From IMG/VR virus record IMGVR_UViG_3300005403_000006: DNA of 64,000 nucleotides. The stretch is one strand, 5' to 3'. Each line of letters starts with the position of its first letter. Position 1 is the first letter of the stretch. Below, in pieces: positions 6,007-49,364 of the stretch. This DNA is from a virus. The notes under the pieces were generated by a model. The model searched no databases, had not been told where the DNA came from, and saw only the letters and a list, made by a program, of their open reading frames with translations. The position numbers and the translations under genes were made by a program.

Positions 6007-7218
6007 TTAACCTATTATTTGTAATTTAGGACAAGGAACAATAAATTTGCCTCCATTCTTTAGGTATTCTTTTTCCCTTTCCCTAAATACTGTAATGAAG
6101 TGCCAAGGCATTATTAATAAATAATCAGGCTGTACTTTCCTCATTTCTTCCTCTGAATAGATGGTTATATTTGACCCAACCGTACGTAATCCCCACTTGT
6201 AAGGGCTACGGTCTGCAATCCCATCAATCATAGAACTATCAATCTGAAAATACTGTAATAATGTGTTCCCTTTAGTAGATGCACCATACCCCCATATCGT
6301 TTTTCCTTTAGCTTTTTCAGTATATATAAAATCGTATAGTTCTTTTCCAAGTTTTTGTATCGCTTTAAACCAGGCATTCCATGTTTCTGTTTCTTCAATT
6401 TTGCATTGTGCCTCATACGCAAACAATGAGGCTATCCTAATATCACAAACATCCCTATGTGGTTGACTACCAAATAATTCAACATTTCCTTTAGTTTTCA
6501 TAATAAACAACCTGAATGACCCTCCATTTATGTCATTTATTTGACAGTCAACTATTTTAAACCCATTTCTATTTAATAGTTTCTCAATATTTCCTAATGA
6601 GTAATAATAAAAATGTTCATGGCAAATATTATCAAATGCCATTTGTTTTAGCATCAATGGGGTATAAGACATTTGCATAACTAGTAACCCATCATCATCC
6701 ATAATTTCGTTAATGTCACCTAAGAATGTTTCCCTATCTTCAATATCATAAAACATTGCTATTGCAGTAATAACCTTAGCTTTCCTACTTGGTAAATATT
6801 CTTTGTATACTCTTGTTGAAAAGTAATCCTGAATAATAATATTGGAATTTGTAATTGCTTCATCATAAAAAGAATCTTCCGCAGGGTCAATCCCTATTTT
6901 AACTAATTTATTGGAAACGTAACTCAATAATGTACCATCATTACAAGCTATGTCTAACCAAACATCATTTGTATGTACCTTATAAATAGATGTGATAGAA
7001 TCAACAATATCCTTTAATCCTTGCTTCATACTTTCATTGGTACCTGACCGATACCAATATTTACCAAACATTATCTTCCTTTCATTGTAATGAGATAAAC
7101 GAACAGCACCATCATCATCCATTACCAATGTCAATTCATCAACTCCTTTTGTAGCAGGTACATTAACTTCCAAAAAGTCAGAAATGTACAAATTACCAAG
7201 CGTGAATAGCTCATTCAT
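6007..7218 (-). CDS. SAM-dependent sugar C-methyltransferase (NDP-hexose C-methyltransferase-like)
   Basis: Class I SAM motif LDIACNDGTLL. The C-terminal block IWGYGASTKGNTLLQY is typical of the C-methyltransferase C-terminal domain. Confidence 0.65.
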   Translation of the reverse strand: MNELFTLGNLYISDFLEVNVPATKGVDELTLVMDDDGAVRLSHYNERKIMFGKYWYRSGTNESMKQGLKDIVDSITSIYKVHTNDVWLDIACNDGTLLSYVSNKLVKIGIDPAEDSFYDEAITNSNIIIQDYFSTRVYKEYLPSRKAKVITAIAMFYDIEDRETFLGDINEIMDDDGLLVMQMSYTPLMLKQMAFDNICHEHFYYYSLGNIEKLLNRNGFKIVDCQINDINGGSFRLFIMKTKGNVELFGSQPHRDVCDIRIASLFAYEAQCKIEETETWNAWFKAIQKLGKELYDFIYTEKAKGKTIWGYGASTKGNTLLQYFQIDSSMIDGIADRSPYKWGLRTVGSNITIYSEEEMRKVQPDYLLIMPWHFITVFREREKEYLKNGGKFIVPCPKLQIIG

Positions 7219-8075
7219 AGTATTGTTTTTAAATAGTCCTCAAACCAAAATTCTGAATAACTTTGCGCTAAATTACAATTTTTTATTTTAAATGGCAAAT
7301 CTTTTATGGTTTCAAAATAAATGCAGTCACCAAATCCAGCCTCAATGTCATAATATTTTAAAGTATTAATTCTTACTTGATGAATTGGAATTGCTTTTAC
7401 TAATAAAGCCTCGTAAAATCTAAAATTAAAAGCATTTGCATTCCCAATAGGAGAAAACACAAATCTATATTTTGCTAAGGTGTTCATGTAATCCCTCCAA
7501 CTTTCAAACTTAGGAGGAATAATATCAATTTCAATCTGTTTTGAAATTTCCTTCAAAGTATGCTTCCTTTCTGAATAGCATTCTCCATTTACCTTTCCTA
7601 TAAATACTACTTTATTTAATTTTTCAGGAACTTCAATAAAATCCTTGTAAAACCTTGAAAATAAAGAACGGTGTAATTTTGTTCCTAATTTTTCGCAATC
7701 ATCTACATCAACTGTAAAATGCACTAAGTATTTAAATTGTTTAATATCTGCATACCGCTGTGGATTATGTGCAAAAAATGAATCAAATATACGTTCTGTA
7801 ATAAATACTACTACTTTAATTTTATTGGCATTACATGTATCTATAAATCCTTCCTGCATAAAAACTGTACGATGTTCAGGATAATGTGAATCCCCTATAA
7901 AAAGAGTATCTATTCCCTCCAAATCTTCTTTTGATTTAACTACTCTTAAAACACCATATAAATTGGTTAAAGCAAAGTAAAATTGCCTAATATTATGACA
8001 CTTTGAATACTCCAAATCACATATAATGCCTACTTTCATAACTCTTATTTTGAAAACATCGGTATTAAAGCCCAT
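7215..8075 (-). CDS. putative glycosyltransferase (exostosin/GT47-like C-terminal motif)
   Basis: KYRFVFSPIGNANAFNFRFYEALLVKAIPI resembles the exostosin-type motif. The same motif recurs in 8809..9669. Confidence 0.35.
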   Translation of the reverse strand: MGFNTDVFKIRVMKVGIICDLEYSKCHNIRQFYFALTNLYGVLRVVKSKEDLEGIDTLFIGDSHYPEHRTVFMQEGFIDTCNANKIKVVVFITERIFDSFFAHNPQRYADIKQFKYLVHFTVDVDDCEKLGTKLHRSLFSRFYKDFIEVPEKLNKVVFIGKVNGECYSERKHTLKEISKQIEIDIIPPKFESWRDYMNTLAKYRFVFSPIGNANAFNFRFYEALLVKAIPIHQVRINTLKYYDIEAGFGDCIYFETIKDLPFKIKNCNLAQSYSEFWFEDYLKTIL

Positions 8076-12865: not shown

Positions 12866-13978
12866 CTACGCCAAATGTACAATACCACTATTTCCGTTTT
12901 GGTCACTACGAATTTGTGGAACTTGTATAGTGAGAACTTTATATTTGGTAACAAATTTACCTTCAACAGTCCATTCAACATTCTGTAATCCCATTCCACG
13001 TACTAAACGAACTACATCAGGAGTCATTTGTACTAGCAACACATTATCAGCAGTCAAAGTATCTACAACCTTAATAGCCGTAATATTAGAGATTTTCAAA
13101 ATCCTCTCACGAATAGTAGTACCGGGAGTAGTTGCATCATAATCAGAATCTAAAACCGTTTCATACCCAGTAGGAATATACAATGTATATGGTCCGTAAT
13201 GTTTAGCATTGATTGCAGTTTGCTTTAATGAAAGCACTTGGTCAACTATTGTTTTACCTCCATTAGCTGTATCACTATCAAAATCTAAATCATCCCAATG
13301 AGTTCCAATAGATACTGTATTACGGTCAGGGTGATTAACATACGAATAAATTGTATTTAATGACCTTGAATCTTTTTCACCAAAAGAATAAGTAGTATTG
13401 GTAAACAACATTGATTCCAACTTTTCAGAAACTCTACGGGCAGCCATTTCTGCGGTAGTAGTGTCAAGTGGATTTCCTAAACTACGACTTGCTGCTAATA
13501 CCCTTGCATTGATTTCATAATCAACGTGAATAATAGGGATAGGCAAGTAGTTGTGTTTAAAATTAGGCCTGTCATTCTTACTTCTGGTAACACCGTCCAT
13601 AGTCAAAGCAGCTTCCATATTATCAGAAACATCATGCCATTCAAGAACTGTGGTTCCCATAGCATTTCCCAGGTTGTACACAAGATTTTTATCAATCAAA
13701 TCCTGAATACCTCCTAAACGAGTGCGACTAATTTGTAAAATAGCATCATCTAATGTTTTCCACTCATCCCTACGAAGAGTTGCATTAACATTCAATTGTT
13801 TGGTAATATAGCTATTTACATTCTTAGGATCTCCTCCTACATAAGCAGTAATGTACGTATTACTATCCTTGCCAATATAAGGGCGCATAGCTCCTACATT
13901 CAGTCCATTATTTTGCAATTGCCCAGCTACTTCACCGTGCCCTTGTCCATTTACAATTAAATCTACATTTGTATTCAT
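12866..13978 (-). CDS. major capsid protein (putative)
   Basis: 370 aa with a very strong RBS (AAAAAAAGGAGG, 6 nt before the ATG). It lies downstream of the portal, Mu F-like, scaffold-like and decoration-like ORFs. Confidence 0.6.
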   Translation of the reverse strand: MNTNVDLIVNGQGHGEVAGQLQNNGLNVGAMRPYIGKDSNTYITAYVGGDPKNVNSYITKQLNVNATLRRDEWKTLDDAILQISRTRLGGIQDLIDKNLVYNLGNAMGTTVLEWHDVSDNMEAALTMDGVTRSKNDRPNFKHNYLPIPIIHVDYEINARVLAASRSLGNPLDTTTAEMAARRVSEKLESMLFTNTTYSFGEKDSRSLNTIYSYVNHPDRNTVSIGTHWDDLDFDSDTANGGKTIVDQVLSLKQTAINAKHYGPYTLYIPTGYETVLDSDYDATTPGTTIRERILKISNITAIKVVDTLTADNVLLVQMTPDVVRLVRGMGLQNVEWTVEGKFVTKYKVLTIQVPQIRSDQNGNSGIVHLA

Positions 13979-13993
13979 AGCATCCTCCTTTTT

Positions 13994-14491
13994 TTAAATT
14001 ATTTGAACTTTAATCCATTGTGAATTAGTTTCTAATGAGGATTCTGAACCTTCAAGTGCTGAAAGGTCTTGGGCTTCCAAGGCAATTCCTACTATATGTT
14101 GGCTATAAATTGAATGTGCTTGTTGGGCATCATTTGATTCCCAACTTTCATTAGAACGGCTTACCTTTCTTAAATTACCATTACCTGCTGATTCTAATGA
14201 ATCACCAATTATGACATTCTCACCATCATTTAAACGGGCATAAACAATGTCACCTCTCATAGCAACCCAAACCTGAACTTGGTCAGCAGCAGCATACGCC
14301 TCAGAAATTGTTTTACCTTGTAAATCATCCTCAACAGCAAACAAGCCTCCTTGAGTTCTACCAGCAAGGGAATGTGCTTGTACCTTTCCTGCCGAAGTAA
14401 TCTCCAATAACATCCCAGGAGTAATTGCAGCAGCAGCCACATATTCTTCTTGATGTTGGAGATAATTTTTTAACTTAATCGTGTTATACAT
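13994..14491 (-). CDS. head decoration / auxiliary capsid protein (tentative)
   Basis: 165-aa ORF directly upstream of the capsid gene with a strong RBS (AAAGGAGGAGAAATG). Confidence 0.35.
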   Translation of the reverse strand: MYNTIKLKNYLQHQEEYVAAAAITPGMLLEITSAGKVQAHSLAGRTQGGLFAVEDDLQGKTISEAYAAADQVQVWVAMRGDIVYARLNDGENVIIGDSLESAGNGNLRKVSRSNESWESNDAQQAHSIYSQHIVGIALEAQDLSALEGSESSLETNSQWIKVQII

Positions 14492-36264: not shown

Positions 36265-36279
36265 AGTTCAATGTTTAGT

Positions 36280-36498
36280 TTAAACTCCAAATGCTTCATC
36301 CAATAACAATAAAGTATTATCTCTATCAAATATTTCTTCCCATACATGATAGCTCCTATTACTTTCTCCTTGCATTGAGAAATACACATATATCCCAAAA
36401 GGAGAGTTACTCCCTTCATGTACAAAAGGCTCATATCTTTTGATTGCAGATAAACGATACCTTTTGTTTTTAATTTTAATAAATTCTTGTTTAGCCAT
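36280..36498 (-). CDS. hypothetical protein
   Basis: 72-aa ORF on the coding strand. Confidence 0.45.
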   Translation of the reverse strand: MAKQEFIKIKNKRYRLSAIKRYEPFVHEGSNSPFGIYVYFSMQGESNRSYHVWEEIFDRDNTLLLLDEAFGV

Positions 36499-36510
36499 AA
36501 CTATTATATA

Positions 36511-36708
36511 TTAAGTGAATAAATCCCAACCTGTTTCAAATATTTTAGAAGTACGTAATTTCCAAAAATCTTCCTCATACATTACATACCCATCATTAGT
36601 CAATACAGTATCTATGCCTTTAATAGTAGCCCATTCATCATAAGTAAAAGTGGTATGACTTACTTTCAATCCCGCTCTCATTCTTTCTTTAGCCTCTGTA
36701 TTTGTCAT
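36511..36708 (-). CDS. hypothetical protein (first gene after the 36.7-kb promoter)
   Basis: 65-aa ORF starting 24 nt downstream of a consensus -7 box. Confidence 0.5.
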   Translation of the reverse strand: MTNTEAKERMRAGLKVSHTTFTYDEWATIKGIDTVLTNDGYVMYEEDFWKLRTSKIFETGWDLFT

Positions 36709-36732
36709 ACCACTTTACTATTAACTATTACA

Positions 36733-36763
36733 CAAAGATAATCTATTATTTTAAATAAACAAA
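36733..36763 (-). promoter_or_regulatory. Bacteroidota-type promoter TTTG-N19-TATCTTTG
   Basis: The minus strand reads AAAAAAGTTTG-(19 nt)-TATCTTTG. The -7 box lies 24 nt before the ATG at 36708. The block is shared with three other sites. Confidence 0.7.
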
Positions 36764-36792
36764 CTTTTTTAAACTTTATTTTAATCCTACTT

Positions 36793-37704
36793 TTAACTCT
36801 TTACAACCCTAAGACACGCAAGAACTAGCCCAGAGAATCCCGAATTGTAAAAAGGTTCTACAAATTCCTCTAAAATCAATCCTGCTTTATCATTATCTGA
36901 TTTTAACAATGTTCCACTAGCATATCCTAAAACGTGCCTACGAATACTTTCAGGATCTTGTTTCTGCAATCCTACTAATATAGTTCTAATCTGTGTCCAC
37001 CCACTATTTTTCATCAATGCTTGGCACAATGCAAAACTTTCAGCAACTTCTTCCTCATACTTCTTAGCCTGTTCAAGTTGTTTATCTTCGGAAACACTTA
37101 AAACTTGGTCAAGTATTTGCAAAGCATTCCTGGGATGCCCTTTAGCTGATTCAATTATTTGTGCATAAACAGTAATATCTATTGAGGTTTCTTCTGCCTT
37201 TACTACTCCATATAGTAGTTTCTTCATTTGCTTGTCATTCAACAACTCCACTTTATATTGAACACACCTGCCTCTTAATGTAGAGATTATCTTTTGTGGG
37301 TCTGTGGTACATATTATAAAGTAAACGTGTTTTGGTGTATCCTCAAACAGTTTTAAAAAGGCATTTTGAGCATCAGTAGTCATTTTATGAGCTTCATCTA
37401 AAACCCACACACGAACACCTCCCATCATAGGAACATACTGACTTTGCCTTATTATTTCTCTAGCAGTATCAATACCTCTCATGTCAGCAAAATCTACCTC
37501 TTTATAATCAATATCAGATACTCCTAACTCATTTGCTATTATTCGAGCAATAGTAGTTTTACCACAACCCGTAGGCCCATGTAACATAAACACATGAGGG
37601 CACTTTGCTTTGTTGGCTATTAAGTTCTGTAATGAAACTACGGTCTCCTCATTACCTTTAATCTCACTTAATACTGTTGGACGATACTTTAAATATAGGT
37701 TCAT
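36793..37704 (-). CDS. clamp loader (AAA+ RFC / DNA pol III gamma-tau-like)
   Basis: KYRPTVLSEIKGNE, HGPTGCGKTT (Walker A), VLDEAHKMT (Walker B) and LRGRC (SRC-like) are present. The track start 37764 overlaps the upstream ORF, so the ATG at 37704 (MNLYLKYRP) is more likely. Confidence 0.85.
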   Translation of the reverse strand: MNLYLKYRPTVLSEIKGNEETVVSLQNLIANKAKCPHVFMLHGPTGCGKTTIARIIANELGVSDIDYKEVDFADMRGIDTAREIIRQSQYVPMMGGVRVWVLDEAHKMTTDAQNAFLKLFEDTPKHVYFIICTTDPQKIISTLRGRCVQYKVELLNDKQMKKLLYGVVKAEETSIDITVYAQIIESAKGHPRNALQILDQVLSVSEDKQLEQAKKYEEEVAESFALCQALMKNSGWTQIRTILVGLQKQDPESIRRHVLGYASGTLLKSDNDKAGLILEEFVEPFYNSGFSGLVLACLRVVKS

Positions 37705-42516: not shown

Positions 42517-43485
42517 CTAAAATAATTTATTTGTTAATTGGTATGTTTGTTCTTTCCTAAATCTATTTAACCATTCCTCAAAATATAAATAAGTCCTAAC
42601 ATTAATACACTCTCTAACGGAATACTTTTGTAAATCCTCATACGTGTACCCTTCTTTTTCAAACAATGCTAATAAATTAACCTTATTCTTAAAATGACCT
42701 TTGTACGACTTTAAAGAACCTACTGCAATCATATTAAATGGTTTCAGCATGTTTGTAGGTAACTGTACATCATAACCTTCTTTTGGATATAATACACTTC
42801 CTGTCGCTGCAATCATTCTCCAACTAATAGCATCACAGCTAGTCCAAGGTAAACTTTTCAATAACTCAGGCACCATTACTGCAAACCCGTGTGTTTTTAC
42901 CTTAATGTTCTTTTTATACAGATACTCAAATACTGCATTTATCCAAGATGCTTTAGAGGCGTTAGGCATATCATTTGCAGGACTTACTCCTATGTAATCA
43001 ACAATATCTACCATCCTGTCTAACCATTTGAAATCTTCTCCTTGATGAAACACATGTATTGGGTGAATACCGTTTTTAATCAATGTTTTTAAATTCAAAT
43101 AACCTTGCTTTGCTGCGGCATTTATTAAACTTTTGTTTGCTGTTAATGATTCAATACTCCCTGTTATCTTGTTGAGGGATTTAGTCTTTCCTGCTTGTCC
43201 CGGGATTACATCAAGATTAACTACATACAATCTTTTGTTATTGTCTAATGCTATATCCTGAGCTTCCTTGATATAGTTGATATATAAGTTCAAATCAACA
43301 AATTTATTCTTATTCCAAGCTGAAAATGCACCTGAATCTAATATTATATTTCCTTGTTTGTTTTCTGACATTTTTATCCAATTATGAAAATCTTTTGGAT
43401 AATTAAATGATACTAACCGATTATGGACACCTAAGTCAGTTTTAGGTGTCCATGCTCCAGCAAAATAAAGTTTAATCGGCTTCAT
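42517..43485 (-). CDS. dpdA: DpdA-like DNA transglycosylase (tRNA-guanine transglycosylase superfamily)
   Basis: 322 aa with ILDSGAFSAW and VNLDVIPGQ blocks. It overlaps queF at the head of the 7-deazaguanine gene cluster. Confidence 0.65.
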   Translation of the reverse strand: MKPIKLYFAGAWTPKTDLGVHNRLVSFNYPKDFHNWIKMSENKQGNIILDSGAFSAWNKNKFVDLNLYINYIKEAQDIALDNNKRLYVVNLDVIPGQAGKTKSLNKITGSIESLTANKSLINAAAKQGYLNLKTLIKNGIHPIHVFHQGEDFKWLDRMVDIVDYIGVSPANDMPNASKASWINAVFEYLYKKNIKVKTHGFAVMVPELLKSLPWTSCDAISWRMIAATGSVLYPKEGYDVQLPTNMLKPFNMIAVGSLKSYKGHFKNKVNLLALFEKEGYTYEDLQKYSVRECINVRTYLYFEEWLNRFRKEQTYQLTNKLF

Positions 43486-43894
43486 AATCAGCCACTACAT
43501 TGATTTGTGTTCCTCCCCTTGCGTTGAATTTGCCTGTAACTAACATACTTACAGGGTGACATGCAAACACACAATCTTCCAATATCTTATTGACTATTGT
43601 TTCCATGAACATTCCTTCATTTCTGTAAGCCATAAAGTACAATTTTAAGGCTTTTGTTTCAAGACATTTTTTATCCGCAATATAATTAATTGCTATTGTA
43701 GCAAAGTCAGGTTGACCAGTCTTAGGACACAAGGAAGTAAATTCATTAAATACAAACTCTGTTAAATACTTCCTATTTGGATACTGATTATCAAAAGTTT
43801 CCAACATACTTACATCAGGAGAATCATATTTGTATTCCGTTCTAGCACTACCTAACTTAGTTAAGTTTTCTGTATTATCTTTTGCTATTTCCAT
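43472..43894 (-). CDS. queF: NADPH-dependent preQ0 reductase (unimodular QueF)
   Basis: The catalytic Cys context is SLCPKTGQPDFA and the QueF motif is ETKALKLYF. Confidence 0.9.
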   Translation of the reverse strand: MEIAKDNTENLTKLGSARTEYKYDSPDVSMLETFDNQYPNRKYLTEFVFNEFTSLCPKTGQPDFATIAINYIADKKCLETKALKLYFMAYRNEGMFMETIVNKILEDCVFACHPVSMLVTGKFNARGGTQINVVADYEAD

Positions 43895-43895
43895 T

Positions 43896-44456
43896 TTATA
43901 ATTTAATTAAGGTAAATAATTCTGCCTTAGCACTTGCATCGGTCATAAATACTCCTTTTAAAGAACTTGTCACCATTGTAGAATGCTGTTTTGATACTCC
44001 TCTCATTCGCATACACATGTGGCTTGCCTCTATGATACATGCAGCAGCTTTCGGTTTAAGAATCTCCATTAAAGCTGTTGTAACTTGTTCCCCAATTCGT
44101 TCCTGAATCTGCAAACGCCTTGCATAAATATCAACAAGCCTAGCTAATTTAGATATTCCTATTACTTTGTCTCCAGGGATATATGCTACATGTGCTTTCC
44201 CGTAAAATGGTAACATGTGATGCTCACACATTGAAAACATCTCTATATCCTTCAACAAAACAATTTGGTCGTATCCATCTGCTGCAAATGTTGTAAGAAC
44301 GTCCTCAGGTTTCTGTTTATATCCTGCATATAATTCATTCCAACTTTTTATTACACGTTTAGGAGTATTAAGTAACCCTTCTCTATCAGGGTCCTCTCCA
44401 ATTGCTGCAAGGGTGTACCTAATAACACCTTCATCCATACTATCAACTAAGTTCAT
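43896..44456 (-). CDS. folE: GTP cyclohydrolase I
   Basis: [20 protein letters not shown] and [11 protein letters not shown] are canonical FolE blocks. Confidence 0.95.
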
Positions 44457-45120
44457 ACTGAATTGAGTCTTTTAGATTATTTGATTCAAATGCTTCCAAT
44501 CTTTCATTACAAGAACCACATTTTCCACATGCAATGGGTTGGTCTTTATAACAAGTTCTAGTTAATTCATATGGAACATTTAATGTGTTTCCTATGGCAA
44601 CAATATGTGCTTTTGAAAGATTTATAAATGGAGTGTGTACATATACACTTCCTCCCGTAGATAACAAAATAGTTTTGGTAATACTTTCAATAAAATCAGG
44701 ACGACAATCAGGGTAAATTGCATGGTCTCCTGCATGTACTCCCAAATATATTTTATTTATTTGCATACTCTCAGCATATCCTGCCATTATTGTTGCAAAA
44801 ATAGCATTACGACCTGGAACTACTGTTAATTTCATATTTTCTTGTTGGTAATGCCCCTCAGGAATATCTCCTCCATTCATCAATAAATTAGAATGAAAAT
44901 GAGTAAATACACCAGTCAAATCAAATATTTTAAAATAAACAGGAAATCCTTTTTGTTTATAATAATCAATTACGTTTAAGGCACTTTCCATTTCAAAAGG
45001 ATTGTGTTTAGAAGGGTATTTAAAGAGTGCACAATGTACCTCTTTACCGTCGTGTAAAAGGACCCCCAACAAAGTTGAGGAGTCCAATCCACCTGACAGA
45101 GCTATAACAACTCTTTCCAT
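44443..45120 (-). CDS. queC: 7-cyano-7-deazaguanine synthase
   Basis: Contains the PP-loop ALSGGLDSS and the C-terminal zinc Cys cluster [18 protein letters not shown]. Confidence 0.95.
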
Positions 45121-45123
45121 CTT

Positions 45124-45972
45124 TTATTTCTTTTTGCTGAATGACATTAAACCATCAGCATCTTGTACAATAAGTTTGGCAAACTTGTTGTACTTAGGAT
45201 TTTTACCATCAGTTAAGATAGTTTGATTTGCTGCCTTAGTAACTTGTGGAAACTTTTTACACATCATTTCCAAAAGTTCTTTTTTGGAATATGTTCCTTT
45301 TGCAATCAAAGGAGTCATGTATTCCACACGTTCGGCAGTAGTTACACGATTTGCAGGAACAACTCCTTTTCCTTTTACAGACTCGGCTGATACAACCTTA
45401 TTTTCTGCTTTCTTTACAGGAGCAGGTGTGTCAAGCAATTCCAAAGCACGTACACGTAATTTGTCCACATTTTTCTGCAAAGCTAATCCCTTACGTAAAG
45501 GCTCCAATACATCTTCTTCTTTAATAAGGGCTTTTAATTCATCAAGGTCAGCATCTTCTACCTGTGCTTTGAAATCATCACCATCCTCTTCAACTTCAAC
45601 AGGCTTTTTAGCTGCTTTCTTTTTAGGGGCTGGTTCATCCTCTTCATCTTCATCATCCTCCTCAGGTTCAGGCTCCACTACTTTCATTTTTGCTTTTGTA
45701 GCAGAGGCTTTTTTAACAGGAACTTCTTCCTCTACTTCTTCTTCCTCTACTTCTTCTTCCTCTACTTCAACACCTGTATCATACCCTAATTCAGCAAATG
45801 CCTTCATAGTTTCAGGAGTGAACACATCCTCTTCAAAATCTACCAATGCAATTGCTTCTTCCACCTTTTTCTGTAAATCAGGTAAGGATACACCTGCTGT
45901 CTTAATTGCTGGGTCAATCCCAAGCACATCATTTAACTCTAAGGCTAATGCCTTCATCGCTTTTAAATCCAT
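45124..45972 (-). CDS. acidic/Lys-rich protein with a conserved C-terminal domain (paralog of 22434..22895)
   Basis: VEEEEVEEEEVEEE and DDEDEEDEPAPKKKAAKKP low-complexity tracts precede a C-terminal ~75 aa that align with the plus-strand 153-aa protein. Confidence 0.6.
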   Translation of the reverse strand: MDLKAMKALALELNDVLGIDPAIKTAGVSLPDLQKKVEEAIALVDFEEDVFTPETMKAFAELGYDTGVEVEEEEVEEEEVEEEVPVKKASATKAKMKVVEPEPEEDDEDEEDEPAPKKKAAKKPVEVEEDGDDFKAQVEDADLDELKALIKEEDVLEPLRKGLALQKNVDKLRVRALELLDTPAPVKKAENKVVSAESVKGKGVVPANRVTTAERVEYMTPLIAKGTYSKKELLEMMCKKFPQVTKAANQTILTDGKNPKYNKFAKLIVQDADGLMSFSKKK

Positions 45973-46002
45973 AATTTATTTGTTTATTAATTATTAAATT
46001 GA

Positions 46003-46263
46003 TTACTTCCTAAAAATTGTACGTATTAATTTTCCTGCATTTGTATTAATAATATCAAGAACTGCAAAGCCTTTCTTTTCTGCCATTTCAGTCAAGTGAA
46101 TGTCATCCTCGCTTTTAGCCATTTTTAATATAAAAGGAGGACTTCTATCCCTTTTAGTAGTAAAAAAGAATTGTTTTGGTAGCTTTTTTGCTTTCAATTC
46201 CTTGCGTAATGCTCTACCACTTTGGTTAGGTTCGGCATAAATAACATTTTTAATACGATGCAT
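46003..46263 (-). CDS. hypothetical protein, paralog of 26894..27142
   Basis: 86-aa ORF 39 nt downstream of a consensus promoter. It shares the MxRIKNVIYA start and LIRT end with the 82-aa ORF. Confidence 0.55.
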   Translation of the reverse strand: MHRIKNVIYAEPNQSGRALRKELKAKKLPKQFFFTTKRDRSPPFILKMAKSEDDIHLTEMAEKKGFAVLDIINTNAGKLIRTIFRK

Positions 46264-46302
46264 TTGGAGTACGTTTTAATTTTTAGTGAAATATAGTGAA
46301 CA

Positions 46303-46333
46303 CAAAGATAGCATAATATTTTTAATATGCAAA
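46303..46333 (-). promoter_or_regulatory. Bacteroidota-type promoter TTTG-N19-TATCTTTG
   Basis: The minus strand reads AAAAAAGTTTG-(19 nt)-TATCTTTG, 39 nt before the ATG at 46263. Confidence 0.7.
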
Positions 46334-46360
46334 CTTTTTTTAAACTTTATTTAAAAATAG

Positions 46361-47134
46361 CTATACCCCCGTTTTCTTATCCCAAATAACTACATGCTCA
46401 CGTGTGGAATAACGTACTCCCTGCTCTATTGCAATATTTAGAACCGTTTCCCTGTTCCGTTCTAATTCTTCACGGGTAGCACCTTGCGGCATAAGTATTA
46501 TTTGTGACTTTTTTATCAAAAGAATTTTAATAAAATCTACCTCTATTTCATCCCAATCCTCTTGCTTTGATACTACAAACTTAAACCAACTATTTGAAAG
46601 TGCTGCTAATTTTTGTAAAACATGGAATTTGAATCTTGCTGCATTAGAATTACCACTATTGATTAATTTAGGACTATTATTCCAGCAAGAAATATACTTT
46701 GTTAATAAAGTACTTGGCATTATAGTACATTCATTTTCAATTTCAATGTAAGGAACAAAACCGTATCGTTCAACAAATCCTTGTATAAAACTAAGTAATT
46801 GAAATTGTTGTTTTAAAGGACTACCTCCTGTTATCACTAAATGTTGTCCTACTCTTAATTTTCGTATCAAATCAAATTCAGGATGTTCCATCATTTCATA
46901 CAGTTCCATAAACGAATAAGGATTTCCAAATCGCCATACTTCTTGCGTGTCACAAAACCCACAATCTAAAACACACCCCTGAAAACGGAGAAAAGCAGCA
47001 GGGCATCCCATATTTACACCTTCTCCTTGAATTGTGTCACAAAAAAATTCCGATATTTCTAAAAACCCATTATCCATATCAACGTACATACGTTTTCTGC
47101 CCGGGTCAGCAGCTATTAATGTTTTAGGATTCAT
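46361..47134 (-). CDS. queE: 7-carboxy-7-deazaguanine synthase (radical SAM)
   Basis: CVLDCGFCDT is the CX3CX2C motif, VITGGSPL the SAM motif. It is adjacent to queD. Confidence 0.85.
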   Translation of the reverse strand: MNPKTLIAADPGRKRMYVDMDNGFLEISEFFCDTIQGEGVNMGCPAAFLRFQGCVLDCGFCDTQEVWRFGNPYSFMELYEMMEHPEFDLIRKLRVGQHLVITGGSPLKQQFQLLSFIQGFVERYGFVPYIEIENECTIMPSTLLTKYISCWNNSPKLINSGNSNAARFKFHVLQKLAALSNSWFKFVVSKQEDWDEIEVDFIKILLIKKSQIILMPQGATREELERNRETVLNIAIEQGVRYSTREHVVIWDKKTGV

Positions 47135-47136
47135 AA

Positions 47137-47496
47137 TTACATATTTGGAACGAACCTACAATTTGTTTTGGGTGTTTCGCTAACTTCTACGGCAGAAACA
47201 CACCACAACATAGTTTGAAACTTGTTGTAAAAATACTCTGCCATATTTTCAGCAGTAGGGTTAAAATCAAGTACATGATTCAGATGTTTGTGGTCTAGGT
47301 TATCATCAATCCATTTTTTGATAATATCCATTCCTCTGTAATCATACACAAACCCTACATTATTCAGTACGGCATTTTTTAGTTCTACTTTTATTACGTA
47401 ATTGTGACCGTGAAGTCGACTGCACGGATGTTCCTCAGGTAAACCATCTAATTGATGTGAGGCGCTAAACGTAAATTCCTTAGTGATTGTAAACAT
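47137..47496 (-). CDS. queD: 6-carboxytetrahydropterin synthase
   Basis: FSASHQL and CSRLHGHNY are the zinc His / catalytic Cys motifs. 119 aa with a strong RBS (AAAGGAGGAAATATG). Confidence 0.9.
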   Translation of the reverse strand: MFTITKEFTFSASHQLDGLPEEHPCSRLHGHNYVIKVELKNAVLNNVGFVYDYRGMDIIKKWIDDNLDHKHLNHVLDFNPTAENMAEYFYNKFQTMLWCVSAVEVSETPKTNCRFVPNM

Positions 47497-47521
47497 ATTT
47501 CCTCCTTTTTTAAATGAACAA

Positions 47522-47790
47522 GTAAAAACCGGGGATGTCGCACCCCGGTGGGCGATTTAAGCAACCATTCTTAATGGCTGATTAAACATTTGAATTGTTT
47601 TGCCGTTTAAAGCACATAAACACCCTCCTTATCCCACTATTTCGCTGTCAAAACCAAGTCAGCCCCTTAAAACCAGTTTATAGAGTTATTGGTAACCTCC
47701 CACTTTCTAACTGCAAAGTGGAGCTGCCGGGAGTCGAACCCGGGTCCAAACAAAACGTCAAAATAAATCAACGGATATTTAATATTTTAC
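47522..47790 (-). ncRNA. ssrA: candidate circularly permuted (two-piece) tmRNA gene
   Basis: The minus strand first shows GGAC-CCGGG-UUCGACU-CCCGG-CAGCUCC-A (47747..47719), which is a T-arm, a 3' acceptor strand and a discriminator. A 52-nt spacer follows, then GGGGCUGACUUGGUUUUGACAGCG (from 47666). GGGGCUG pairs with CAGCUCC and includes a G3:U wobble. A short tag-like ORF and a terminator hairpin lie downstream. Confidence 0.7.
47524..47548 (-). terminator. intrinsic terminator ending the tmRNA-like transcript
   Basis: On the minus strand, CCGGGG-tgcgacat-CCCCGG is followed by TTTTT. It lies 25 nt before the queD RBS. Confidence 0.65.
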
Positions 47791-47820
47791 AAATATACTT
47801 ATTTATATGATTGTAGAAAG
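47790..47820 (-). promoter_or_regulatory. candidate promoter of the tmRNA-like gene (TTTC-N19-TATATTTG)
   Basis: A perfect -7 box, TATATTTG, lies immediately after the helicase stop. The -33 element is imperfect (TTTC). Confidence 0.4.
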
Positions 47821-49364
47821 GGCCTTCCTTTCTTTAAATTCTGCAATACTGTAACCTCATCCTTATAATTGAAATCCTCTTCCCTACTTATTATCTTATT
47901 TATTCGCATTATTCCTAATTTCTTTTCTCTACCGTTCTTGTCTTGATTTAACCCATACATTGCGGTAACGTGTGCATACTTTCTTTTGTCCTCACTAAAA
48001 TTATGCAATGACAACCTATCAGTATCATAACTATCCGCATCCGCTTGTGTAGGTGAAATAACTAAGGGTAAAATCTCTCCTATTTTAGTTTGACTTAATG
48101 AACGTAATTCTTTCCAAGTCTGATTCTGTTGGTGTCTAAATTCCATCTTTACACTTGGTACTAATAAATCCGCATAATCAATTAAAATAATATCAGGTGC
48201 AAATCGTTCAGAATCCCACCACGTTCTTAAAATATCCTTTATATTAGATACTGACAATGTTCCGTTAGCATGTGTGGATAATTTAAAATTCCGTTTATTC
48301 CTGATAAAAAACTTCTTTACTAACTTAATCATTCCTTCTTCATCGAGAGGACGAACTTCCTCTACTTTCTTTACAAACGGTACCCCCCATTTATGCTTTG
48401 CATACTCTAAACAGTTCCAACAAGGTTGATATTCAGGGCGTTCTTTTGCTGCATCCACTAATTCCTCAAAAGTCTTTTTCCTTATTGTTTCTTCATCATC
48501 TCCATCAAATAAAGGTACATCAAATTCTCTTAATTTATGCACACATTCTCCTGTTTGATTGTGGATACAATCTCTTACCGATTCATAATGTACACCACAA
48601 TATTTCTCTAAATTACTTCTTTTAGCTAAATAAACACCAATTCGTTTTAATTGTTCACCTTCATTCATATCTCCCGCTTGAAAAAAAGCTACTTTTCTCC
48701 CTTGTCGGGATGCTTTAATAGCAAGTTCTAGGAGAATAAAGCTCTTACCCCTCTTTTCAGAAGCCATAAAACTAACAAAAGAACCTCTAGTAAACTGACT
48801 ATTCCAAAATTCACCCAATGCCTTAGGAAAACATATAATAGGTTGTCCTACTTCTGCAAATGCTTGTCGTATCCTATCTAAATGTTTACGTTCACTTAAA
48901 TCAATTGTGCTATCCTCACTATCAGATAAAGGTGAAAATTGATTGACAAATTCCTCAGCATTTTTAATACGTTCCTCGACACTCCCTACTTTATTTGATA
49001 GCAAACTATCAACAGATTGTGAAAGTATCTCTAATCTACGTTTCCTGAAGTACTTAAACGTTTCCGTGTATAAATACTCAACATTGAAATCTTTATTAGT
49101 ATATTCAGAACTTAACCCAGGCAATATATCCTCTTCAATCTCCTCAGCAACATCTTTATTCAACCCTTCCCTAATCTTTTGTAAAAGAATTCCTTCTATA
49201 TTATTTTTAGGAGCAATTTCATGGTCTTTGTAATATGAAAAAACCCAGGTAGCAATTTGTTTAGCCACCGAAGATTCTATGTAATCATTATTCCAAATAC
49301 CTTTTACTTTTCTAAGGTATTCTGTGGAAACTATAAGTCCTATAATTATTTGTCGTTCTATCAT
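47799..49364 (-). CDS. replicative DNA helicase (DnaB / RecA-fold hexameric type)
   Basis: Walker A context FMASEKRGKSFILLELA and Walker B-like IILIDYADLL. 521 aa, located in the replication module. Confidence 0.6.
   Translation of the reverse strand: MIERQIIIGLIVSTEYLRKVKGIWNNDYIESSVAKQIATWVFSYYKDHEIAPKNNIEGILLQKIREGLNKDVAEEIEEDILPGLSSEYTNKDFNVEYLYTETFKYFRKRRLEILSQSVDSLLSNKVGSVEERIKNAEEFVNQFSPLSDSEDSTIDLSERKHLDRIRQAFAEVGQPIICFPKALGEFWNSQFTRGSFVSFMASEKRGKSFILLELAIKASRQGRKVAFFQAGDMNEGEQLKRIGVYLAKRSNLEKYCGVHYESVRDCIHNQTGECVHKLREFDVPLFDGDDEETIRKKTFEELVDAAKERPEYQPCWNCLEYAKHKWGVPFVKKVEEVRPLDEEGMIKLVKKFFIRNKRNFKLSTHANGTLSVSNIKDILRTWWDSERFAPDIILIDYADLLVPSVKMEFRHQQNQTWKELRSLSQTKIGEILPLVISPTQADADSYDTDRLSLHNFSEDKRKYAHVTAMYGLNQDKNGREKKLGIMRINKIISREEDFNYKDEVTVLQNLKKGRPFLQSYK

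Follow-up and report, generated by a model that had tools for sequence, protein, structure and literature searches.

A circularly permuted tmRNA gene of Bacteroidota type between a helicase gene and queD in viral DNA

Two-piece transfer-messenger RNAs (tmRNAs) are known from the Alphaproteobacteria, a betaproteobacterial lineage, and some Cyanobacteria. In two-piece molecules of alpha, beta, and cyano type, as in canonical one-piece tmRNAs, a pseudoknot (PK1) lies between helix P2 and the resume codon, and PK1 is important for tmRNA function in E. coli. Here, we describe a gene of this permuted kind in a 64,000-nucleotide (nt) stretch of viral DNA, IMG/VR record IMGVR_UViG_3300005403_000006 (the window), in which the gap between a DnaB-like helicase gene and queD holds, on the minus strand, a circularly permuted (two-piece) tmRNA gene of Bacteroidota type. 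Phage two-piece tmRNAs have been published for OM43 phage Melnitz, pelagimyophages, and Caulobacter phages (Buchholz et al. 2022, PMC9004378), and the same study reports 53 permuted calls by ARAGORN among 18,146 phage genomes (PMC9004378). A 2025 database paper sorts permuted genes as alpha, beta, and cyano only and lists 48 of them in Bacteroidota genomes (PMC11915505). Our literature search returned no paper joining the terms tmRNA, permuted, Bacteroidota, and phage.

A sequence-only reading of this DNA had proposed that the gap encodes a circularly permuted tmRNA. Across the 64-kb window, ARAGORN called nothing but a permuted tmRNA (tmRNA*) at 47466..47810(-) with the predicted tag, GKTIQMFNQPLRMVA. 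The only above-threshold match to Rfam 15 in the window was likewise RF04321 (tmRNA_permuted, which merges RF01849, RF01850, and RF01851), at 47557..47779(-) and over the full length of the model (68.1 bits against a gathering score of 47, E = 5.7e-11, model positions 1 to 213 of 213). The one-piece model RF00023 matched a 3' fragment only (36.9 bits, below its threshold of 47; model positions 179 to 374); the gene is thus not a colinear, one-piece tmRNA. Rereading the sequence placed every minus-strand element of the proposal where it had been reported, and the resemblance to tmRNA, confirmed base for base, goes far beyond chance. The T arm and 3' acceptor strand, GGAC-CCGGG-UUCGACU-CCCGG-CAGCUCC-A at 47747..47719(-), come first, followed after 52 nt by the 5' acceptor strand at 47666(-), where the coding piece opens with GGGGCUGACUUGGUUUUGACAGCG; the gene order is therefore permuted (Table 1). 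As a matter of annotation, calling this gap of about 300 nt a structured RNA gene is solid.

Because no tmRNA gene was found in phages with related helicases (L005 to L011), the set used for covariation consists of genes retrieved by pattern, not of syntenic loci, and comprises 87 unique viral permuted genes. Acceptor pair 5:68, which connects the upstream 3' strand with the downstream 5' strand, is formed in 86 of these 87 sequences in three Watson-Crick types (G-C in 35, A-U in 35, and C-G in 13, with 3 wobbles and 1 mismatch). The two variable (outer) pairs of the T stem occur in four Watson-Crick types with zero mismatches across the same genes. Among 21 Bacteroidota-like sequences, the T arm is paired at all positions in every sequence and the U-G pair of the acceptor stem (G3-U) is invariant; RNAalifold, run on a MAFFT alignment of these 21, recovered the T arm and the acceptor stem and nothing else. 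The proposed pairing of GGGGCUG with CAGCUCC, including the G3:U wobble, is thus upheld by covariation across viral homologues, and both the acceptor and the T helices show compensatory changes.

Helix P2 was proposed as well, in a register (CGAAAUAG/UUAUUUUG, GGAUA with UAUCC) that has to be replaced: duplex prediction and the homologues back a different, three-segment arrangement (P2a, P2b, and P2c). We scored a user-defined structure comprising the T arm, acceptor stem, and P2a to P2c on the MAFFT alignment of 21 sequences. Overall, 72.0% of cells were paired, versus 61.2 ± 1.2% in shuffled alignments (0 of 500 shuffles as high) and 46 to 53% when the partners were slid; the covariation score of the defined structure was 0.364 versus 0.167. 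P2a is the well-supported segment of P2, the best of the three, with 82% of cells paired and changes on both sides in 7 of 7 counted pairs, so that the compensatory changes anticipated for P2 do occur. Its first pair is G-C in 17 sequences and A-U in 4, and its second is U-A in 13, A-U in 7, and G-C in 1, in both cases with zero mismatches. Relatives give partial support to P2c, whose strands show compensatory differences from those of L261 (UAAUAUCC/GGGUAUUA) and L001 (UAGUGUUC/GAGCAUUA). Duplex prediction returned a three-segment P2 in 25 of the 25 homologues tested. In an alignment-free swap test, in which P2 strands were exchanged between 33 genes, cognate strands fit better than foreign ones in 30 of 33 genes (mean z of -1.73); the window strands pair with each other at -18.0 kcal/mol versus -11.6 ± 2.7 kcal/mol with foreign partners, none of which (0 of 32) equaled the cognate value. 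Together, these comparisons support by covariation the in silico pairings that join the two pieces.

By eye, the loop between P2b and P2c (47768-47774 and 47624-47627, minus strand) has a kink-turn sequence pattern, in which CC-GUU-GA of the acceptor piece faces GA-GG of the coding piece. L001, L261, L278, L330, and L384 likewise show GUUGA/GA by eye; L357 has AUUGA instead and L362 has AAUGA, and the pattern is absent from L319 and L370.

The tRNA-like domain closely resembles that of one-piece tmRNAs of the Bacteroidota. More than 120 species genomes, mostly of Bacteroidota with additional Nitriliruptoria, contain the exact 29-nt T arm and acceptor strand, there as part of one-piece tmRNAs whose tags include GENNYALAA. 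The 24-nt 5' end of the window gene equals that of Bacteroidota one-piece tmRNAs at 22 to 23 of 24 positions, and UGUUU-GGAC, with its bulged-U P2a, is common to the window and 91 of about 128 such genes. CCA is unencoded in 127 of 135 Bacteroidota host genes, as in the window (CUU), and encoded in 59 of 90 viral permuted genes overall. The resume codon also agrees: the statement in the sequence-only reading that Bacteroidota tags begin with Gly was borne out, since most tags called by ARAGORN at the matching loci are G initial (GENNYALAA, GETNYALAA). The host genes differ from the window gene in being unpermuted, about 370 to 420 nt long, and equipped with a resume codon about 95 nt from G1 (by ARAGORN) and with GENNYALAA-type tags. 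For the alpha, beta, and cyano types we used the non-Bacteroidota-like viral permuted genes as a proxy in place of bacterial genes; this proxy group has a UUCGAC D-loop analogue, an encoded CCA, an Ala resume codon, and ANDN...-type tags, whereas in the window the analogue reads UUUUGAC, CCA is unencoded, the resume codon is GGC, and the tag is GKTIQMF.... Judged by sequence against these viral proxies, the gene appears to belong to none of the three types, and its tRNA-like domain matches the Bacteroidota one-piece type instead of the alpha, beta, or cyano two-piece type.

A 29-nt 3' end identical to that of host tmRNA genes is also what the core of a phage attachment site would look like, and ARAGORN does make false permuted calls, as in Cellulophaga phage phi4:1, which lacks Rfam support. 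The locus could then be an attP copy of the 3' end of host ssrA next to a chance tRNA-Ala-like start. We consider this very improbable: RF04321 covers both halves at full length, the downstream half carries a tmRNA-specific 5' end, P2 strands, and a tag frame, and the two halves covary. Moreover, no integrase was seen among the 33 window open reading frames (ORFs) scanned, and the neighborhood is a replication and DNA modification module.

The coding piece contains a short reading frame that is shared with related genes. Ahead of a conserved GGC, every member of the 21-sequence alignment has A(-4) and A(-3), and U(-5) is nearly invariant; the U(-5)A(-4)A(-3) stretch corresponds to U85 and A86, which set the frame in E. 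coli tmRNA. Related tags are encoded in four other viral contigs (L388, GKVIQMFAQPVRLAA; L319, GKVINMFGQPQLRAVA; L279, GNVYQMFDQPARQAA; L387, GKIVPMFTPALKAVA), where codons for Gly, Ile, Gln, Pro, Arg, Val, and Ala differ synonymously. The same four contigs have, by eye, equivalent hairpins of different sequence in the tag frame. From 33 unique genes of this sub-family, 30 tags were recovered, all of them intact and all ending in A, preceded by A or V. The sequence-only reading suggested that the phage, its tag lacking ALAA, might redirect ribosome rescue, an idea that these data do not support. The window tag has a hydrophobic C terminus, ...RMVA, and tags of sister phages end in MAA, LAA, or AVA; the window ending thus reads as a variant hydrophobic C terminus with no obvious loss of a degron. 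The RMVA ending (47557-47568 in the window) recurs in otherwise unrelated tags, those of L355 (GRVISFRRSAMRMVA) and of the proteobacterial-type L360 (ANDNSYRMVA).

Only 13 nt (47617-47605) separate P2c from the resume codon, too few to accommodate PK1, which the window gene therefore lacks. Counted from G1, the resume codon lies at a distance of 62 nt in the window and 57 to 68 nt across the sub-family, whereas A-initial (ANDN...) viral permuted genes have it at 80 to 120 nt and host genes at about 95 nt. Pairing with sequence farther away might still form a pseudoknot. The missing PK1 is an architectural departure and no ground for excluding the gene from the tmRNAs.

The absence of PK1, together with a tRNA-like domain that is a near-perfect copy of the host's and hence apt for competing for host factors, would suit an RNA that mainly binds host SmpB, alanyl-tRNA synthetase, or stalled ribosomes and so damps or hijacks trans-translation. 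There is precedent for such a decoy in the domain-only RNA of mycobacteriophage DS6A, and molecules of this kind inhibit tmRNA in E. coli (PMC4131195, PMC11915505); viral contig L003 holds a mini-tmRNA that shares the T arm and consists of the domain alone. The window gene shares with the DS6A RNA a phage-encoded, chargeable-looking tRNA-like domain but adds a complete coding piece whose tag frame is conserved. A decoy would have no need of that frame, yet the frame, resume context, stop, and hairpin are conserved, with synonymous changes, in diverged relatives, and all 30 recovered tags are intact. We therefore regard this explanation as unlikely.

Promoter and terminator candidates flank the gene. 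The Bacteroidota-type -7 box TATATTTG is present where the sequence-only reading had placed it, at 47797..47790(-), but its motif alone is not enriched: TAnnTTTG has 122 matches in the AT-rich window versus 108 ± 11 expected. Of 33 homologous genes, 8 (2.0 expected) carry this motif 47 to 56 nt upstream of the T loop (GGGTTCGA); in the other, non-Bacteroidota-like permuted group, 0 of 67 genes do. The box carries weight because of its position, not its frequency. From that position, transcription would start near 47785. The predicted GC hairpin and U-run terminator were recovered by terminator scan and fold, with the hairpin spanning 47549..47528 and a T run after it.

These signals also bear on whether the gene is a remnant, captured and rearranged and now decaying or no longer used. 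Its sporadic distribution, with close relatives lacking it at this locus, would fit such a history, as would the missing PK1 and a tag end, MVA, that departs from the host ALAA. However, the helices are all intact, G3-U is kept, the frame is open, and a promoter-like box and a terminator belong to the gene itself; across 33 unique Bacteroidota-like sequences, the architecture is kept with compensatory changes, which drift would not yield. A remnant is accordingly quite improbable. Conservation of the frame and covariation of the two halves weaken all three alternatives, the attP copy, the decoy, and the remnant.

Table 1 Features of the permuted tmRNA gene and its neighbors in the window
Feature	Position	Strand	Remarks
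Promoter box, Bacteroidota-type -7, TATATTTG	47790..47797	-	Read in sequence
Acceptor piece	47719..47785	-	About 67 nt before CCA addition; 3'-side P2 strands, T arm, 3' acceptor strand, discriminator A47719; RF04321 alignment and ARAGORN
P2c, acceptor side, AAAUAUCC	47773..47780	-	Pairs with 47618-47625
Internal loop GUUGA	47768-47772	-	Between P2c and P2b on acceptor piece
P2b, acceptor side, UUUAUUUUG	47759..47767	-	Pairs with 47628-47636
P2a, acceptor side, GUUUUG(U)UUG	47747..47756	-	U47750 bulged; G47747 also first G of GGAC
T arm, CCGGG-UUCGACU-CCCGG	47727..47743	-	5-bp stem, 7-nt UUCGAnU-type loop
3' acceptor strand, CAGCUCC	47720..47726	-	Pairs with 47660-47666 over 7 bp including G3-U
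Discriminator A	47719	-	CCA unencoded; CUU next
Intervening sequence	47667..47718	-	52 nt; predicted removed
Coding piece	47523..47666	-	About 144 nt; 5' acceptor strand, D-loop analogue, 5'-side P2 strands, tag frame, terminator; ARAGORN, RF04321, terminator scan
5' acceptor strand, GGGGCUG	47660..47666	-	Holds G3 of the G3-U70 alanine identity pair
P2a, coding side, CAG-CGAAAU (CAGCGAAAU)	47639-47647	-	Duplex prediction
P2b, coding side, UGGGAUAAG	47628-47636	-	Duplex prediction
P2c, coding side, GGGUGUUU	47618-47625	-	Duplex prediction
Leader AUGUGCUUUAAAC	47605..47617	-	13 nt, single stranded; carries U(-5) A(-4) A(-3)
Tag frame, GGC..GCU UAA	47557..47604	-	Encodes GKTIQMFNQPLRMVA; ARAGORN and translation
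Tag-frame hairpin, CAGCCAUU-AAG-AAUGGUUG	47562..47580	-	3' half of tag frame; minimum free energy and centroid folds
Intrinsic terminator, ACCGGGG-UGCGACAU-CCCCGGU then UUUUU	47523..47549	-	Terminator scan and fold
DnaB-like helicase	47799-49364		Flanks tmRNA gene
queD	47137-47496	-	Downstream neighbor of tmRNA gene
queE	46361-47134	-	Deazaguanine cluster
ORF of unknown function	45124-45972	-	Within deazaguanine cluster
queC	44443-45120	-	Deazaguanine cluster
folE	43896-44456	-	Deazaguanine cluster
QueF-like gene	43472-43894	-	Deazaguanine cluster
DpdA-like transglycosylase	42517-43485	-	Deazaguanine cluster

We conclude, with a probability of roughly 85%, that this is a functional circularly permuted ssrA gene on a virulent-looking phage of a Bacteroidota host. 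Detectors, covariation, the tag frame, and host-type signals all back the proposal of a two-piece tmRNA on a phage with a host of this type.

How such a gene would act can be outlined from what is established about the processing and action of two-piece tmRNAs (see PMC11915505). A single precursor of about 260 nt would start from the Bacteroidota-type promoter just past the helicase stop and end at the terminator that precedes queD. As in known two-piece tmRNAs, host tRNA-processing enzymes would mature it: RNase P would be expected to cut at G47666, creating the 5' end of the coding piece; the 3' end of the acceptor piece would be trimmed to A47719, as its likeness to tRNA and tmRNA suggests, and its 5' end would be set by the promoter box. 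CCA would be added at A47719, an addition that is needed because only the first C is encoded, and the 52-nt intervening sequence would be lost. That segment is unconserved among homologues in both length (40 to 76 nt; 213 nt in crAss-like phage cr50_1) and sequence, and its excision is again predicted from known two-piece tmRNAs. The 7-bp acceptor stem and the three-segment P2 would hold together an acceptor piece of about 67 nt and a coding piece of about 144 nt, in agreement with the earlier estimates of about 65 and 145 nt. Host alanyl-tRNA synthetase would presumably charge the RNA via G3-U70, and host SmpB would deliver it to ribosomes stalled on broken mRNAs, where translation would resume at the GGC at 47604, add Ala plus GKTIQMFNQPLRMVA, and stop at UAA, so that the ribosome is released. 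The phage would probably benefit because ribosomes are kept free while host and phage mRNAs are cut during infection. Since the tag is conserved and unlike the host's, tagged proteins may meet a fate different from that of host-tagged ones.

Several points weigh against a working gene. The steps of transcription, processing, charging, and tagging are argued by analogy. The promoter motif is common in the AT-rich DNA of the window, and the fold of the whole precursor is no more stable than shuffles (z of -0.84). On the unsupervised MAFFT alignment, 51% of P2b cells and 49% of P2c cells are paired. Conservation of CAAAUGUUU in the tag could reflect a constraint at the level of RNA instead of peptide. 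None of the 33 window ORFs scanned was found to encode SmpB; the system would therefore rely on the host protein, and with PK1 absent, activity cannot be assumed.

The sequence-only reading had regarded phage tmRNAs as rare and knew of no permuted one in a Bacteroidota-type phage. This view is not supported: phage two-piece tmRNAs are published (PMC9004378), two examples in phages of Bacteroidota hosts are already public, and pattern scans point to well over 100 permuted tmRNA genes in IMG/VR. The exact 29-mer occurs in four IMG/VR contigs, L001, L002, L003, and L004, of which L001 and L004 hold the same permuted tmRNA (RF04321, 62.8 bits; tag GKTIEMKMAA). A search of IMG/VR for the T arm and acceptor strand followed 45 to 75 nt later by GGGGNTGA gave at least 120 matches, and nearly all of the listed matches are permuted calls by ARAGORN; a stricter pattern for a Bacteroidota-like 5' end (UUGAY rather than UCGAC) gave 42 IMG/VR loci. 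The two public examples, each annotated "tmRNA, SsrA" and here confirmed as permuted, are in Chryseobacterium phage MA9V-3 (PV245944.1; RF04321, 64.7 bits; tag GNVIDINKYVAKLEVAA) and in cr50_1 (MT774375.1; 60.3 bits; tag GNNFVTDYTAIGA). Neither record mentions permutation, and the MA9V-3 paper says just "tmRNA" (PMC13120357). Both resemble the window gene in gene order, in G-initial tags, in G1-to-resume distances of 62 and 59 nt, and in belonging to phages of Bacteroidota hosts (MA9V-3 was cultured on Chryseobacterium; the cr50_1 host, which its record does not name, is inferred); they differ in their tags and, for cr50_1, in the length of the intervening sequence. The window gene is thus real but not unprecedented and joins a family of similar phage genes.

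Among the other two contigs with the 29-mer, L002 encodes at 6973-7527 a 555-nt one-piece phage tmRNA whose 26-residue tag, GNTVDLSAYTAEALLAELETPVALAA, ends in ALAA, and the L003 element at 559-641 is an 83-nt tRNA-like domain only, like that of DS6A. Cellulophaga phage phi4:1, listed as "Permuted" in Table S1 of Buchholz et al. (PMC9004378), was considered as a Bacteroidota-phage precedent and rejected: the ARAGORN call (L391 40420-41081, equal to KC821632.1 positions 89919-90580) runs across tRNA-Tyr, -Ser, and -Asn of a 24-gene tRNA array, has no match to RF04321, and is probably a false positive. ARAGORN permuted calls in phage tRNA arrays can therefore be false, and published counts need a covariance-model check.

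Compared with bacterial two-piece tmRNAs, the window gene has the same order of 3' half, intervening sequence, 5' half, P2, and tag frame, forms the acceptor stem and P2 between two pieces, keeps G3-U, and scores above threshold with RF04321. It differs in that its domain, P2a, missing CCA, and Gly codon follow the Bacteroidota one-piece type, in its short G1-to-resume distance (62 nt versus the 80 to 120 nt of the viral A-initial genes) without room for PK1, and in a tag unrelated to the ANDN...ALAA type. With Melnitz-type genes it shares detection by ARAGORN and the character of a permuted ssrA carried as an auxiliary gene by a lytic phage. Those genes, however, are of alphaproteobacterial type, and that of Melnitz is tied to a glutamine riboswitch (PMC9004378), whereas the Bacteroidota-type window gene sits between the DnaB-like helicase gene and queD, and Rfam gave no riboswitch match in the window.

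What is apparently undescribed is the sub-family: Bacteroidota type, without room for PK1, and with its own conserved tag. A bolder reading, which we hold tentatively and at somewhat less than even odds, is that these genes form an undescribed fourth bacterial-type permuted lineage that arose independently from a Bacteroidota one-piece tmRNA and is carried by phages of that phylum. In this lineage, 12 to 13 nt would separate P2 from the resume codon in place of PK1, and one of its sub-families, that of the window, would have its own conserved tag, GK-I-Q-M-F-x-Q-P-x-R-x-x-A, which would give rescued proteins a fate unlike that conferred by the host GENNYALAA degron.

By analogy with known tmRNAs, the phage would supply its own ribosome rescue RNA. 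The wider interest lies in the family, with 42 Bacteroidota-type permuted genes in viral contigs; those of a cultured Chryseobacterium phage and a crAss-like gut phage are annotated as plain tmRNA. If its origin is independent of the alpha, beta, and cyano lineages, it would be a further case of convergent gene permutation and also a natural experiment on whether PK1 is dispensable for a working tmRNA. The conserved non-host tag offers a handle, as tagged peptides (ending in AGKTIQMFNQPLRMVA, or in AGNVIDINKYVAKLEVAA for MA9V-3) could be sought by mass spectrometry, and their detection would reveal phage use of the products of stalled ribosomes during infection. A link between the phage tag and a ClpX-like unfoldase of the phage, prompted by the "ClpX" label of an MA9V-3 protein, was rejected: that protein is a generic AAA+ ATPase (in a PHROG of unknown function), and what it weakly matches in the window (109 residues at 26.6% identity) is the clamp loader at 36793-37704.

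The window is 32.7% G+C, and a simple caller gives 75 ORFs, 73 of them on the minus strand. A complete-looking 7-deazaguanine DNA modification cluster (42517-47496, minus strand) begins immediately downstream of the tmRNA gene; since it includes QueF, the DNA of the phage may contain a preQ1-type base. Farther out are genes for a sliding clamp, DNA polymerase, clamp loader, UvsX and UvsY homologues, a DnaC-like loader, a primase, and an SNF2 helicase; the neighborhood is a phage replication and DNA modification module. Neither blastn with the locus nor tblastn with the helicase gave any match in 50,697 GenBank phage records, and the window DNA polymerase is at most 24% identical to proteins of the same records, so no close cultured relative is available from which to read the host.

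Distribution of the gene is patchy. No tmRNA gene was found near helicases 48 to 58% identical to that of the window (L005 to L011, with flanks of up to 4 kb on each side); in L005, L006, L007, and L011, queD follows the helicase gene after a gap of 30 to 614 nt. Three contigs (L259, L366, and L367) share with the window the polymerase (54% identity), clamp loader, and UvsX and UvsY homologues and carry a different permuted tmRNA (tags DKVIKLNPIVELKVAA and DKVMQLNPIMKLEAAA) directly after the clamp-loader gene, followed by a tRNA. The corresponding site in the window (36265-36792) was searched for a tmRNA remnant and holds small ORFs only, with no RNA-family match. The occurrence of tmRNA genes at different sites in one phage group indicates that they were gained at different sites, and the window gene is, as far as these comparisons go, a sporadic insertion that behaves as a mobile auxiliary gene.

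Some intervening sequences of related genes have features of their own. Those of L279, L357, L387, L332, and L284 share (G/C)UAAC-CnGUC-GC(G/U)UUAGUAC(n)G, which could fold as a small H-type pseudoknot, an unexpected feature in a supposedly discarded segment; the window intervening sequence lacks this motif. The 213-nt intervening sequence of cr50_1 holds an extra T-arm-like GAGGTTCGACTCCTC, and about 450 nt upstream of the permuted gene in that phage (L371 859-1025 and 1481-1849) is a RAGATH-22 RNA (155.6 bits).

Scarce use of Shine-Dalgarno motifs is typical of the Bacteroidota and their phages, and in the window, such motifs precede 9 of 75 ORFs, which equals background. A strong AAGGAGG precedes only a few genes, among them the ORFs at 12866-13978, 13994-14491, and 47137-47496 (queD); the other ORFs have A-rich leaders without a Shine-Dalgarno motif.

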